From positions 90,412 through 154,411 of the IMG/VR virus record IMGVR_UViG_3300042307_001176: a DNA stretch of 64,000 nucleotides; one strand, given 5' to 3'. The position numbers and the translations under genes were made by a program. The notes beneath the pieces were generated by a model. That model did no database searches. It had not been told where the DNA came from and was given only the letters and a program-made list of their open reading frames with translations. Numbering within the stretch: the first letter of the stretch is position 1; each line of letters opens with the position of its first letter. Shown here in pieces: positions 1,696-9,148 of the stretch. Origin of the DNA: a virus.

Positions 1696-1753
1696 CTAAA
1701 TTTTAAAGTCTTTAGGAGAACAAAAGTTCATGCTGGTTCAGATCCAACCTCTT
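1696..1753 (+). pseudogene. Possible decayed 3' part of a type II tRNA (Leu-TAA-like)
   Basis: CTAAA/TTTAG arm with TAA in the loop, variable hairpin GAAC-AAAA-GTTC, T-arm-like GCTGG-TTCAGAT-CCAAC; no D arm. Confidence 0.4.
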
Positions 1754-1778
1754 GTATTTTTTGGATATATAATAAATC

Positions 1779-3010: not shown

Positions 3011-3787
3011 ATGGCAACAACAAGAGCATTTTCATATAATCCAACACAATCAACAATTGCGGGAACTACGAATGTGGGTACTCTATGTATAGGTGTATCT
3101 CCTTTAGCATATAGTACTAACCCTGGTGGATTAACCTGGTGGATGGGACCAGACGAAGATAATTCTTACGTGATAGCTAAGGATGTATCAGCTGGAAATT
3201 TTCCCACTCCTGTAGGGAACGTAGGTAATGTACAATTTTGGAGATGCACTAATACGGATTTAGCATTTAAAGATTTAGTATCTATAATAAGTGGTACTGC
3301 ACAAGCATCGGCTTCAGCAGCTAAATCATGGCTAACAACAAATAATTATTGGACTAATTATACCAGTGGTGTAACTTTCTCTCGCCCTTTCGTTAATGGT
3401 ATTGCACCAGGAGCTACCACAGAAACTGCTTGGAATACATTCAGAGCAGCATTAACGGGATCTTATACACAATTTGTTATATCAAATTCATTAGGATTTA
3501 GTCTAACCGTAAGCCATGCTACTTCGGTCCAAACTTTGGCAGATGCTTTAAAAAATGCAACAAGCAATACCTCAGTAACTATAAACAGCGTAGTTTGGAG
3601 AGTGGGAACAGCTTGTGGAACTCCTTCTATTGGTGGAGTTGCTGTTGAATTTTCTAATGTAGGAAGCTGTACTGGATCAAGTACTATAGCATTTAGACCT
3701 ATGATTAATAACTTAAACTGGGGAGGTATGGGTACAGGGTCTACTGTAAGCCAGGCTTCTCAAACAATGACACTAACATTTAGCTAA
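3011..3787 (+). CDS. Paralog of 2154..3005 with a different C-terminal domain
   Basis: Highly similar first ~117 aa, unrelated C-terminus. Confidence 0.8.
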   Translation: MATTRAFSYNPTQSTIAGTTNVGTLCIGVSPLAYSTNPGGLTWWMGPDEDNSYVIAKDVSAGNFPTPVGNVGNVQFWRCTNTDLAFKDLVSIISGTAQASASAAKSWLTTNNYWTNYTSGVTFSRPFVNGIAPGATTETAWNTFRAALTGSYTQFVISNSLGFSLTVSHATSVQTLADALKNATSNTSVTINSVVWRVGTACGTPSIGGVAVEFSNVGSCTGSSTIAFRPMINNLNWGGMGTGSTVSQASQTMTLTFS

Positions 3788-4106: not shown

Positions 4107-4231
4107 ATTAAATAAATAGAGAATATTAAAAATTAGGCAAAGTAACCACAAACCCACTGGTAATAGGCAGTTCTTGAGATGGAATGCAATATAAAACGTA
4201 AGTCCTGCTTTGCCTTTTAGATATATAAGTA

Positions 4232-4816
4232 ATGAAAACATTTAAAGATTTTATTTACGAAAAAATTAATGAAGACACATTATCGTATAGGGGATTAAAA
4301 TTTAATTTTAATTCAACTATCGATGGGTATGTTAAAGTAAAAGAAGATGATCCAACTATATCATTTGATAGTGAAACCTCGTTTGATAAACTTATAATAA
4401 CCGATCCTCGTGAATTCTTTAACTTTAGATATGATAATGAAAAGGATAATAAGAACTTATCTTCTATTGATTCAGAAAATGTTCTTAGAATTAGAATTGG
4501 ATCTAAAGATTTTAAGGGAAGATCCGGCGGGGTTACTCATGTATCTGTAAGAGTCCCTGAAAATTTTGACTATAATAAATTTCAATTAGAGTTACCTAAT
4601 ATAAAGATAGCGCTTACAGATAGAACTGAAGTAGACAGAGTTATTAAAGAAGTTGAGGCTCTTGTAACTAAATGTGCAGGGGAAGAACCTAATGCGTATT
4701 CAGATAATAAACCAGATTACAGACAGGACATCGTAAATTTTATTAAATCTATAGAAGAAAAGCTAGGTAAAGAAGATACCAAAAGAATATTTATTGATAT
4801 TATTAATAAATTGTAA
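4232..4816 (+). CDS. Hypothetical protein, possible internal head protein
   Basis: N-terminus MKTFKDFIYE resembles T4 capsid-targeting sequence. Confidence 0.75.
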   Translation: MKTFKDFIYEKINEDTLSYRGLKFNFNSTIDGYVKVKEDDPTISFDSETSFDKLIITDPREFFNFRYDNEKDNKNLSSIDSENVLRIRIGSKDFKGRSGGVTHVSVRVPENFDYNKFQLELPNIKIALTDRTEVDRVIKEVEALVTKCAGEEPNAYSDNKPDYRQDIVNFIKSIEEKLGKEDTKRIFIDIINKL

Positions 4817-4854
4817 AATTTAATTTACATAGATAAGAATATATAAAATAAAAA

Positions 4855-5133
4855 ATGAAACATCTTAAAAAATATCAATCTAATAATTCAGAAATTAACG
4901 AAGGATTTTGGGATTCTCTTTTTGGCAAACCCACTGTTGATGATGCTGCTCATGACCAAATGAGAGGTCAAGGATGGAGCCACAGAGGTAAAGACGAAGA
5001 AAATTATATCATGTTTCAAGGACAAAAGTTCTATCCAGAACAGATCCAATATGATGATGCTTATTCAACTAAACAAATACCAAGAGTTGAAGGTGGTATG
5101 CTAATCGTAGCTAACCCAGCTTGGAATTTATAA
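4855..5133 (+). CDS. Hypothetical protein
   Basis: ORF with MKHLKKY..INE N-terminus. Confidence 0.7.
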   Translation: MKHLKKYQSNNSEINEGFWDSLFGKPTVDDAAHDQMRGQGWSHRGKDEENYIMFQGQKFYPEQIQYDDAYSTKQIPRVEGGMLIVANPAWNL

Positions 5134-5170
5134 TAAAAATAAAAAAATATCAGAAATCGTTTTTTAATGA

Positions 5171-5201
5171 GAAACTTTTCTGTACATTTGGAGTATATAA
5201 T
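5171..5201 (+). promoter_or_regulatory. Stacked promoters of tRNA operon 2
   Basis: GAAACT(5171)-N17-TATATAAT and TACATTTG (5183-5190). Confidence 0.6.
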
Positions 5202-5222
5202 AAAAAAGGAACAAAACTTTCA

Positions 5223-5312
5223 ATGAAACACTTTTTAAATATCGCAACAGATTTTCAACTTCGTAAAGAGGATGACCTTCTAGAGGATAGATTTAAGTGT
5301 CAGAGGAAATAA
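5223..5312 (+). CDS. Attenuator leader peptide 2 (MKHFLNIATDFQLRKEDDLLEDRFKCQRK)
   Basis: GAG GAT GAC CTT CTA GAG GAT run (5268-5288) matches downstream Glu/Asp/Leu(TAG) tRNAs. Confidence 0.8.
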   Translation: MKHFLNIATDFQLRKEDDLLEDRFKCQRK

Positions 5313-5333
5313 ATTTATATAATGATATAATTT

Positions 5334-5362
5334 AAACCTCTGATAACCTCAGAGGTTTTTTT
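5334..5362 (+). terminator. Attenuator terminator, tRNA operon 2
   Basis: AAACCTCTGA/TCAGAGGTTT plus T tract; 5337-5345 alternatively pairs with TGTCAGAGG 5298-5306. Confidence 0.85.
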
Positions 5363-5370
5363 GTTTTATA

Positions 5371-5382
5371 CGCTCTTTGAAA
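5371..5382 (+). promoter_or_regulatory. boxA-like element
   Basis: CGCTCTTTGAAA just before first tRNA. Confidence 0.6.
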
Positions 5383-5386
5383 TTAC

Positions 5387-5458
5387 GCTGCCATCGTCTA
5401 ACGGTTAGGACCTATGGTTTTCATCCATAAAATCGGAGTTCGATTCTCCGTGGCAGTA
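5387..5458 (+). tRNA. tRNA-Glu(TTC)
   Basis: TATGG-TTTTCAT-CCATA. Confidence 0.93.
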
Positions 5459-5469
5459 CAAAAAATTAA

Positions 5470-5544
5470 GGTCCCGTAGTTAAACGGCTATAATGCTGCC
5501 CTGTCACGGCAGAGTTCGGAGTTCGATTCTCCGCGGGACCGCCA
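5470..5544 (+). tRNA. tRNA-Asp(GTC)
   Basis: CTGCC-CTGTCAC-GGCAG, encoded CCA. Confidence 0.95.
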
Positions 5545-5552
5545 AATTATAT

Positions 5553-5625
<73 letters not shown>

Positions 5626-5629
5626 CTAA

Positions 5630-5710
5630 GCCCAGGTGGTGAAATGGTATACACGCTAGTCTTAGAAATTAGTGACGTAAGTCGTGAGGGTTCGAGTCCC
5701 TCCCTAGGTA
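5630..5710 (+). tRNA. tRNA-Leu(TAG)
   Basis: CTAGT-CTTAGAA-ATTAG, variable arm GAC-GTAA-GTC. Confidence 0.9.
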
Positions 5711-5712
5711 CT

Positions 5713-6282
5713 ATGAAAATTATATTTTTAGATCATGACGGTGTAATTTGTCTTTCCCAACAATTTGGAGGACGTTACAAAAAGCAGGCTAAAGCTAGAA
5801 AAAAGCTTTCTCAGGATCTGATGACTTTTCCTGTTGGAGCTAGGTTTGATAATTTTGATAAGAAAGCAATAAAGGTTTTAAATACAATCTTAGAAGAAAC
5901 AGGAGCTGAAATAGTGGTTTCTTCAGATTGGAAAAACTGGGCAACTGTAGAAGAAATGGGTGAATACTATAAAGAGCAAGGAATTATTAAAACTCCTATA
6001 GATTTCACTCCTAGAGAATACACGTTACCAGAGAAACAAGAATGGCATCCAGATTGGGATTTAGAAGCATCAAGAACTTTAGAAATCCAAGAATGGTTGA
6101 AAGATCATCCAGAAGTCTCTCATTGGGTAGCAATAGATGATTTGGATATGAGTTTTAAAGAAGTATCTTCTAATAGAAGCGGTACCGGATGGGGATTAAT
6201 AAATTTCGTACACACTCCAAGCCTTAATGAAGGTATTAAAAAATGTGGAATTAAAGAAAAAGTTTTAAAATTTTTAAAATAA
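5713..6282 (+). CDS. HAD-superfamily phosphatase (HAD_SAK_2, RNA-repair-associated type)
   Basis: IIFLDHDGV, IVVSSDW, WVAIDD; start moved to ATG 5713 because the track ORF overlaps tRNA-Leu. Confidence 0.75.
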   Translation: MKIIFLDHDGVICLSQQFGGRYKKQAKARKKLSQDLMTFPVGARFDNFDKKAIKVLNTILEETGAEIVVSSDWKNWATVEEMGEYYKEQGIIKTPIDFTPREYTLPEKQEWHPDWDLEASRTLEIQEWLKDHPEVSHWVAIDDLDMSFKEVSSNRSGTGWGLINFVHTPSLNEGIKKCGIKEKVLKFLK

Positions 6283-6797: not shown

Positions 6798-6835
6798 TAC
6801 TTTTGCGAAACTATTCTGGAAACAGGATATATAAT
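6798..6835 (+). promoter_or_regulatory. Stacked promoters of tRNA operon 3
   Basis: TACTTTTG (6798), GAAACT(6807)-N17-TATAAT(6830), GATATATA (6826). Confidence 0.6.
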
Positions 6836-6843
6836 TAAGAAAA

Positions 6844-7450: not shown

Positions 7451-7588
7451 ATGATGATAGAAAGTAAAATAGTAGCCAGAGGAAGTTTCCCCTCAAGCAG
7501 AGAAAACTTAAGAAGAGAAACATTAAAATTTAATAGAGCCAAAATATTGATCGGAAGAATTAAAAGACTAATTAACAAAGGAAAGTAA
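7451..7588 (+). CDS. Small basic ORF (45 aa) inside tRNA operon 3
   Basis: MMIESKIVARGSFPSSRENLRRETLKFNRAKILIGRIKRLINKGK*; stop overlaps 5' end of tRNA-Ser. Confidence 0.45.
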   Translation: MMIESKIVARGSFPSSRENLRRETLKFNRAKILIGRIKRLINKGK

Positions 7589-7665
7589 TCTCAGATGGTG
7601 ACGGGGCTCGCCTGCTAAGCGAAGCGTACCTTAATTGGTATTTGGTTCGATTCCAATTCTTTCCG
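7580..7665 (+). tRNA. tRNA-Ser(GCT)
   Basis: TCGC-CTGCTAA-GCGA, long variable arm; somewhat atypical D arm. Confidence 0.85.
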
Positions 7666-8659: not shown

Positions 8660-9148
8660 ATGAAAGTGCTAGTTCTAAATAATGACTTTACTCCTATAAG
8701 TGTTACCGACTTTGCTCGTGGATTTAAGCTTGTGTATAAAGGTAAAGCAGAAGTTTTAGAGCACGATGAACAAAATCCAATTGTTACTGAACAAAGCACT
8801 TACAAAAGACCTTCTGTTATCAGACTTTTAAAATATGTTGTATTGCCTTTTAAGAAGTTAAAACCGACTAGGGAAAATATCTTTAGAAGAGATGGGATGA
8901 AATGTGTTTATTGTGATACTACTAAGAACCTAACAATAGATCACGTTCTACCTAGATCTAGAGGTGGAGTTAATACATGGGAGAATCTAACAACATGTTG
9001 TTCAAAATGTAACAATAAAAAAGATGACAGGACTCCAGAAGAAGCTGGAATGAGAATGAGACAGAAACCATTCAAGCCAGGATACGGATATTTTATACGC
9101 AATTTCGCAAAAGGATTGGAGGTATGGACAGCATATCTCCCTGATTAA
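8660..9148 (+). CDS. HNH endonuclease (McrA/HNH_5-like)
   Basis: RDGMKCVYC, TIDHVLPRSRGG..WENLTTCCSKCNNKK. Confidence 0.9.
   Translation: MKVLVLNNDFTPISVTDFARGFKLVYKGKAEVLEHDEQNPIVTEQSTYKRPSVIRLLKYVVLPFKKLKPTRENIFRRDGMKCVYCDTTKNLTIDHVLPRSRGGVNTWENLTTCCSKCNNKKDDRTPEEAGMRMRQKPFKPGYGYFIRNFAKGLEVWTAYLPD

Follow-up and report, generated by a model that had tools for sequence, protein, structure and literature searches.

A probable leader-peptide attenuator ahead of a phage operon for tRNA-Glu, tRNA-Asp, initiator tRNA-Met and tRNA-Leu(UAG)

Introduction

Little is known of how a phage controls the expression of its own tRNA genes. These genes are usually viewed as constitutive helpers in codon usage or as decoys against tRNA-targeting defences. 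The locus described here raises the question in a specific form, as a short open reading frame (ORF) containing consecutive Glu, Asp and Leu codons is followed by an intrinsic terminator, and the genes for tRNAs that read those codons lie behind it. Does the progress of the ribosome through the ORF decide whether RNA polymerase reaches the tRNA genes?

The DNA analysed comes from an uncultured phage and is the final 64 kb (64,000 nucleotides; hereafter the window) of the 154,411-bp IMG/VR virus record IMGVR_UViG_3300042307_001176. The window has a G+C content of 33% and contains 24 tRNA genes in three clusters, as called by ARAGORN. All three clusters have a common layout, in which a TAnnTTTG box is followed by a short ORF, a hairpin with a T-run, a GYTCTTTGAMAT motif and then the tRNA genes. 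We refer to the leader of the second unit as Leader 2; Leaders 1 and 3 precede the other two clusters. Judging from its sequence and from modelled folding, we think it rather probable that Leader 2 is a ribosome-mediated (leader-peptide) transcription attenuator of the tRNA-Glu/Asp/initiator Met/Leu(UAG) operon, and probably of the adjoining HAD_SAK_2 gene as well.

Results

Organization of the second tRNA unit

The features of Leader 2 and its operon are listed in Table 1. The tRNA genes of the operon (5387-5711) are separated by spacers of 3-10 nt, and the gap between the terminator T-run and tRNA-Glu is 24 nt, with no space for a further promoter. The tRNA at 5553-5626 has the hallmarks of a bacterial initiator: C1 and U72 are mismatched, A11:U24 is present, and the anticodon stem has GGG/CCC, three G-C pairs adjoining its loop. 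Because the HAD_SAK_2 gene starts only 2 nt past tRNA-Leu, it is probably co-transcribed with the tRNA operon; in close relatives it also adjoins the Leu(tag) gene. HAD_SAK_2 denotes the HAD domain found in RNA-repair proteins of the 'Swiss Army Knife' type, a phosphatase associated with RNA repair. A nucleotide search of cultured phages with positions 4800-5800 returned tRNA matches only, and a close cultured relative was not found.

Table 1. Coordinates of the features of Leader 2 and of the genes behind it, numbered from the first nucleotide of the window.
Feature	Position	Strand	Basis or detail
Promoter-like -7 box TACATTTG, TAnnTTTG type	5185-5192	+	Position and conservation
Candidate region 1, covering the start-codon region	5218-5233	+	Can pair with 5295-5308 (MFE, pair counts)
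Leader 2 ORF, 29 codons and TAA	5223-5312	+	ATG 5223-5225, TAA 5310-5312
Putative sensor run GAG GAT GAC CTT CTA GAG GAT (Glu, Asp, Asp, Leu, Leu, Glu, Asp)	5268-5288	+	In frame
Antiterminator strand (region 2) TGTCAGAGG	5298-5306	+	Within the last five ORF codons
AT-rich nested hairpin, including the stop codon	5310-5334	+	Enclosed by the antiterminator helix
Intrinsic terminator	5334-5362	+	5' arm 5334-5343, loop 5344-5348, 3' arm 5349-5358, seven T 5356-5362
boxA-like motif CGCTCTTTGAAAT	5371-5383	+	Between terminator and first tRNA
tRNA-Glu(ttc)	5387-5459	+	ARAGORN, Rfam tRNA model
tRNA-Asp(gtc)	5470-5544	+	ARAGORN, Rfam tRNA model
Initiator-like tRNA-Met(cat)	5553-5626	+	ARAGORN, Rfam tRNA model
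tRNA-Leu(tag)	5630-5711	+	ARAGORN, Rfam tRNA model
HAD_SAK_2 protein gene, 189 aa	5713-6282	+	Pfam PF18143, E=4.7e-23

Transcription is predicted to start near 5197, which would give a 5' UTR of about 26 nt. The TA and TTTG of the TAnnTTTG box are kept in all homologues of Leader 2, and its two n positions vary. As a genome-wide promoter signal the motif was rejected, with 105 occurrences against about 97 expected, and because the bare motif is not enriched we infer the promoter from conservation and position only. In Flavobacterium psychrophilum (Flavobacteriaceae) a TAnnTTTG box lies at -12 to -5 and 5' UTRs have a median length of 24 nt; this species makes no use of Shine-Dalgarno sequences, and leader-peptide attenuation is suspected for its amino-acid operons (PMC9723704). 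The TACATTTG box fits a Bacteroidetes sigma-A -7 element, and the host of this phage is probably a member of the Bacteroidetes. All three leaders also have an ATATAAT-like motif 3' of the TAnnTTTG box and 7-23 nt before the ATG (965-972, 5195-5203 and 6830-6838). It is not kept in the L007/L008 homologues and might act as a promoter of phage type or as a signal for translation.

In rrn operons and phage lambda, the Nus-factor antitermination signal boxA, a GCTCTTTAACAA-like motif, heads untranslated RNA operons. The putative CGCTCTTTGAAAT motif occupies a corresponding place at the head of the Leader 2 operon and may resemble the boxA 12-mer; a literature search on the boxA sequence gave no relevant match. 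Motifs of this class occur in the 154-kb genome only at four RNA-operon heads, plus one off-type match; in relatives, 27 cluster heads carry one at a distance of 17-31 nt 5' of the first tRNA. They are absent from the Cellulophaga phage leaders described below. The fourth motif of the genome, GTTCTTTAACAT at G000:C1:88024, is located 2.4 kb upstream of the window and 3' of a TAnnTTTG box. No tRNA was called behind it, and it may head another untranslated RNA.

Several observations concern the other two clusters. A tRNA-like gene with a long variable arm at 7579-7665 (+) was missed by ARAGORN; its anticodon loop reads GCT by eye, and it scores 38.3 bits with the Rfam tRNA-Sec model, under the gathering score. 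Its counterpart in L007 and L008 is called by ARAGORN as tRNA-Ser(gct), immediately 5' of Ile(gat). The gene overlaps the 3' end of a small ORF (7451-7588), and the Ser codons of Leader 3 are AGY in three of three cases. An HNH endonuclease gene (8660-9148) lies directly 3' of the third cluster. In the first cluster, positions 1697-1770 (+) hold the 3' half of a tRNA-Leu(taa), from the anticodon loop to the acceptor end. This remnant is an intact tRNA-Leu(taa) in L004 and L005, and Leader 1 retains two TTA codons. The 166-nt spacer between tRNA-Arg(tct) and tRNA-Pro(tgg) (1298-1463, +) contains no ORF and has no Rfam match, and a spacer of about equal length is present in L004 and L005.

A run of operon-cognate codons in the leader ORF

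A preliminary description of the locus had placed an EDDLLED run in Leader 2 at 5268-5288, ending 9 nt before the antiterminator strand. Direct reading of the sequence showed all of its coordinates to be correct: seven consecutive Glu/Asp/Leu(CTN) codons are present in frame, TGTCAGAGG begins at the distance given, and each of the seven codons is decoded by a tRNA of the operon downstream. Codon usage was derived from a crude gene set of 144 long ORFs, in which the operon-cognate codons (GAR, GAY, CTN and ATG) have a genome frequency of 18.9%. The 154-kb genome contains 837 small ORFs (ATG start, 15-45 codons), and among them the run at 5268-5288 is the sole case of at least seven operon-cognate codons in succession. 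Enrichment over the whole of Leader 2 is modest, with 9 of 28 codons cognate against 5.3 expected (P=0.068), and 16 of the 28 belong to tRNAs of a different operon. Leader 2 is the weakest of the window's three leaders in codon enrichment; it is the strongest in antiterminator pairing.

The use of CTN rather than TTA for Leu had been put forward as a match to tRNA-Leu(tag). Within Leader 2 the preference is not significant, three of four Leu codons being CTN (P ~0.2). Genome-wide, CTN makes up 43% of Leu codons and TTA 49%, which rules out the choice of CTN as stand-alone evidence. CTN also persists in L007/L008, where ARAGORN called Leu(tag) elsewhere than beside the Glu and Asp genes. Support for the claim comes only from a comparison across leaders, given below.

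Competing structures at the end of the ORF

The antiterminator strand pairs with CCTCTGATA (5337-5345) over 9 bp including one G-U, as had been described. Positions 5337-5345 are a segment of the 5' arm of the terminator, and the arm is therefore common to both structures. Folding energies are -14.8 kcal/mol for the antiterminator structure, scored before the terminator 3' arm exists, and -13.0 kcal/mol for the terminator. We ranked 62 compact terminator-like hairpins in the genome by the best upstream duplex with the terminator 5' arm. Leader 2 came first with -14.1 kcal/mol, Leader 1 second and Leader 3 third, and when the 3' part of the Leader 2 ORF was shuffled the observed duplex was equalled in 2 of 500 shuffles. 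The fourth-best score belongs to a strong terminator directly past a long gene outside the window (G000:C1:500-570), the 5' arm of which is complementary to the last codons of that gene; this could reflect translation-dependent termination or chance.

The outcome of the competition was modelled as a function of where free RNA begins. With RNA free from 5290-5299, taken as the boundary set by a ribosome with its A site in the run, the antiterminator pair was predicted with a probability of 84-97%. With RNA free only from 5302, the prediction was 0.5% antiterminator and 99% terminator. Toeprinting places the leading edge of a ribosome about 12-13 nt beyond the first A-site base, and a ribosome positioned on the stop codon would cover 5298-5306. 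As a stall in the run would leave this strand free and a ribosome at the stop codon would cover it, the geometry fits the classic attenuation model. A search of 5198-5386 against Rfam at E<=1 gave no match to any known leader (Trp, His, Leu, Thr, Leu/Phe), T-box or riboswitch.

Conservation and co-variation in relatives

Relatives were collected with a HAD protein search, which gave 80 viral loci, and with the T-run/boxA junction pattern, which gave 14 viral and 43 metagenomic stretches; a search with the upstream 92-aa protein added one further contig, which lies outside the homologue set. Sixteen distinct Leader-2-type homologues were obtained, all with an open ORF of 24-31 codons. In alignment A1 the indels within the ORF are 12, 3 and 3 nt long and a 1-nt indel occurs just past the stop codon, which is the pattern one would expect of a translated frame. 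Every homologue keeps a core in which two acidic codons follow one CTN Leu codon, at a distance of 24-30 nt from the stop. In the divergent members Glu and Asp together fall to 3-4 of the 24-31 codons. The first gene behind every Leader-2-type leader is tRNA-Glu. On contigs long enough to show the second gene, it is tRNA-Asp; the one exception is L141, which has a second Glu in the ARAGORN calls.

The terminators of the homologues fall into three subtypes, represented by the window, by L093/L084 and by L118. In each, the last ORF codons are complementary to the subtype's own 5' arm, with per-sequence duplexes of -13.5 and -13.4 kcal/mol. These per-sequence energies were used because MAFFT placed the L093/L084 terminator arm off by one column, as a result of which the antiterminator pair counts under-report. 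The C-terminal peptide is replaced completely in the L093 and L118 subtypes. Since these residues are wholly changed between subtypes, selection at the end of the ORF appears to act on the RNA and not on the peptide. In addition, two base pairs of the nested hairpin have compensatory changes in the L093/L084 subtype, and the flip from antiterminator to terminator near -9 from the stop recurs in the homologues. Because the homologues are closely related, this co-variation rests on three subtypes and few independent events. L126 has an antiterminator mismatch and adopts the terminator in every modelled state. An equilibrium switch was not predicted in L126, nor in the unrelated leaders L120, L138 and L145 or in phage phi4:1 (see below); in the latter four cases the terminators are too strong for an equilibrium switch and a kinetic mechanism must be assumed.

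Leader codons and operon tRNAs

To compare leaders with operons we used 12 pairs: the three of the window, a distant Leader-3 type (L048), the unrelated L088, L095, L106, L120, L138 and L145, and two from Cellulophaga phage phi4:1. Each leader was scored against each operon by a z-score over genome codon frequencies. The own operon was the best match for 10 of the 12 leaders, and Leader 2 matched its own operon with z=1.78, rank 1 of 12. None of 300,000 random assignments was as good as the observed pairing, and for the first eight pairs the true assignment was the single best (exact 1/40,320). L120 is a clear non-match and a counter-example, and was retained in the test. The correspondence extends to split codon boxes, which follow the anticodons present. 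Leu codons are CTN over TTR by 3:1 in Leader 2, which precedes Leu(tag), and TTR over CTN by 5:0 in L106, which precedes Leu(caa)/Leu(taa); this contrast is what speaks for the CTN claim. Likewise, Ser codons are all TCN (TCN:AGY 4:0) ahead of Ser(tga) and all AGY (0:3) ahead of the gene that resembles Ser(gct). Glu-rich leaders were also found before other Glu-containing operons (L106, L138 and L145).

The ORFs of L088, L095, L106, L138 and L145 are unrelated in sequence, share the same terminator-boxA junction and have codons that match the tRNAs downstream. In phage phi4:1 (L096, NC_021788), identical promoter-like sequences precede two short ORFs, at 3214-3282 and 4174-4257. Past each ORF come a terminator and then a tRNA block, the amino acids of which the ORF samples; 11 of 21 and 22 of 26 codons, respectively, are cognate. 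The former ORF is unannotated and the latter lies inside the annotated gp075 CDS (locus 4138-4257).

The untranslated leader

The preliminary description had reasoned that a lack of fMet-tRNA would prevent translation of the leader and so favour read-through, and that the initiator tRNA of the operon would be covered in this way. Our models do not support this corollary. For the window-type leader as naked RNA, folding predicts 83% terminator form, since pairing of 5218-5233 with 5295-5308 can sequester the antiterminator. This pairing is kept in window-type homologues; the L085 subtype has it in another register, and the L093 subtype has it only weakly. In the latter the prediction is the opposite, as the MFE structure of the naked RNA is the antiterminator. 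Conservation of this 1:2 helix is not convincing, as the compensatory cells in the pair counts of alignment A1 stem from two sequences with an interrupted helix. Given the predicted terminator form of the naked leader, failed initiation would more likely lead to termination, comparable to superattenuation in trp.

Discussion

The analysis suggests the following mechanism. Transcription would begin about 26 nt 5' of the ATG, with a ribosome trailing the polymerase along the 29 codons of the ORF. Fast decoding of the Glu, Asp and CUN-Leu codons would bring the ribosome to the last codons and the stop, where it would cover 5298-5306, the terminator hairpin 5334-5358 would form, and the transcript would stop before tRNA-Glu. 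If charged tRNA-Glu, tRNA-Asp or tRNA-Leu(UAG) is scarce, slow decoding would stall the ribosome within 5268-5288 with its leading edge at or before about 5298. The strand 5298-5306 could then pair with the emerging 5' arm of the terminator, which would block termination and allow the polymerase to continue into the tRNA genes. The outcome would be negative feedback on the supply of the operon's own tRNAs. Since the Glu/Asp/Leu run is joined to a switchable terminator, the phage probably makes these tRNAs only when the leader codons are read slowly.

This scheme builds on the sequence parts and their geometry, on the thermodynamic switch, on conservation and co-variation in relatives and on the codon/tRNA correspondence across leaders. 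It presumes a translated ORF, a host that couples transcription to translation, and an effect of the direction and size needed. The core of the preliminary description, a translated leader in which a stall frees the antiterminator and a ribosome at the stop codon blocks it, is supported by folding, the genome-wide controls and the relatives; its CTN argument is not significant within the leader itself, and the fMet corollary is not supported by the predicted folding of the untranslated window-type RNA. We consider Leader 2 very likely to be an attenuator; that it is a codon-specific sensor of Glu, Asp and Leu seems probable to us with distinctly less assurance.

Attenuation could be coupled to translation without being codon-specific. 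Any slowing or shortage of ribosomes, for example by host shut-off, ribosome-targeting toxins or general starvation, would then lead to the antiterminator, and the run would have no part in sensing, being conserved as a feature of the peptide or of the RNA. The overall cognate enrichment of only P=0.068 and the low acidic content of divergent homologues point in this direction, the invariant GAGGAT may be kept for pairing with an invariant AATATC near the ORF start, and the tRNA array of Anabaena is inducible by general translational stress (PMC8421152). We nevertheless judge this explanation unlikely, given that codon content tracks operon content across 12 leaders down to the split boxes, that the run is located exactly where stalls would free 5298-5306, and that independent leaders of other Glu-containing operons (L106, L138 and L145) are Glu-rich.

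Two further explanations dispense with control by the ribosome. Leader 2 could be no more than a micro-gene that has its own terminator. The tRNAs would then depend on constitutive leak-through, or on a phage-type promoter within the leader that went unrecognised, and the complementarity to the terminator arm would be functionless. That the three tRNA leaders are the top three of 62 terminators in upstream complementarity, and that every terminator subtype has its own complement while the peptide C-terminus is unconserved, makes this improbable, as does the significant codon matching across leaders. Small ORFs are indeed frequent in AT-rich DNA, and TAnnTTTG alone shows no genome enrichment. 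Candidates for such a promoter, TATAAT-like hexamers, are present between antiterminator and terminator (5319-5332) but are not kept in the L093 and L118 subtypes. A leader that senses RNA or protein directly, through a T-box-like element, another riboswitch or a bound protein, with uncharged tRNA or protein as the ligand and the ORF incidental, is highly improbable in our estimation. T-box leaders do resemble Leader 2 in choosing between terminator and antiterminator in response to tRNA charging; they bind uncharged tRNA directly, without translation. Leader 2 has no specifier-loop or T-box sequence, no Rfam family including the T-box (RF00230) matches 5198-5386 at E<=1, the indels fit a translated frame, and the leader is only about 165 nt long and mostly AT-rich.

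As a ribosome-mediated attenuator, Leader 2 would most resemble the thr leader (Thr and Ile codons) and the ilvGMEDA leader (Ile, Leu and Val codons). They have in common a short translated ORF with a cluster of codons for several amino acids, mutually exclusive antiterminator and terminator structures between which the position of the ribosome decides, and a stop codon that adjoins the antiterminator strand. The enterobacterial attenuators control biosynthetic enzymes, whereas Leader 2 would control tRNAs and is borne by a phage, the host of which is probably a member of the Bacteroidetes. The two show no similarity in sequence or by Rfam, and the anti-antiterminator (1:2) helix is uncertain in Leader 2. 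Because the regulated genes are tRNAs, the regulated products of Leader 2 would themselves supply the quantity sensed, namely codon decoding. The pheST (pheM) leader of E. coli applies leader-peptide attenuation within the translation apparatus: its regulatory codons and the gene under its control relate to the same amino acid. That gene encodes an aminoacyl-tRNA synthetase, only one amino acid is sensed, and the system is not from a phage, whereas Leader 2 would control phage tRNA genes. In the leu operon leader, with its four rare CUA codons, the choice of synonymous Leu codons tunes which tRNA species is sensed. Leader 2 similarly has CTT and CTA before a tRNA-Leu(UAG) gene, but its codon-choice signal is weak (P about 0.2).

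The nearest parallel among published cases is the trn array of Anabaena PCC 7120, a set of supernumerary, horizontally acquired tRNAs that is switched on when translation is impaired and has RNA-repair and HNH genes in its neighbourhood (PMC8421152); in the window, HAD_SAK_2 and HNH genes flank tRNA clusters. The Anabaena array responds to general translational stress (PMC8421152) through a repressor, TrcR, that acts at the promoter (PMC10272220). The words 'attenuat', 'leader' and 'terminator' have 0 occurrences in the text on the trn array (PMC8421152). A full-text literature search found no published precedent for an attenuator on tRNA genes. Leader-peptide attenuation is a known mechanism; the tRNA-gene target and the self-referential logic are new.

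It is tempting to regard these attenuators as the sensing arm of a counter-defence module against tRNA damage, an idea that we offer as a doubtful one. An anticodon nuclease or another tRNA-depleting host defence would cause stalls on the matching leader codons, and the stalls would lead to transcription of replacement tRNAs together with an RNA-repair enzyme, encoded by the HAD_SAK_2 gene. If true, each operon would independently raise a codon-addressed alarm when its own set of tRNAs is attacked.

The leader device is widespread in uncultured freshwater phages and is present in the cultured Cellulophaga phages phi4:1 and phi17:2, and because the host of the latter two can be grown the idea is testable at the bench. 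The many unannotated units of promoter, small ORF and terminator ahead of phage tRNA arrays would gain an annotation rule. A leader peptide written in the codons of the tRNAs encoded downstream would constitute a direct, self-measuring feedback loop on tRNA supply, in which the classic logic of attenuation is reused for the translation machinery, and would show that decoding speed is monitored by a phage at the level of single codons.
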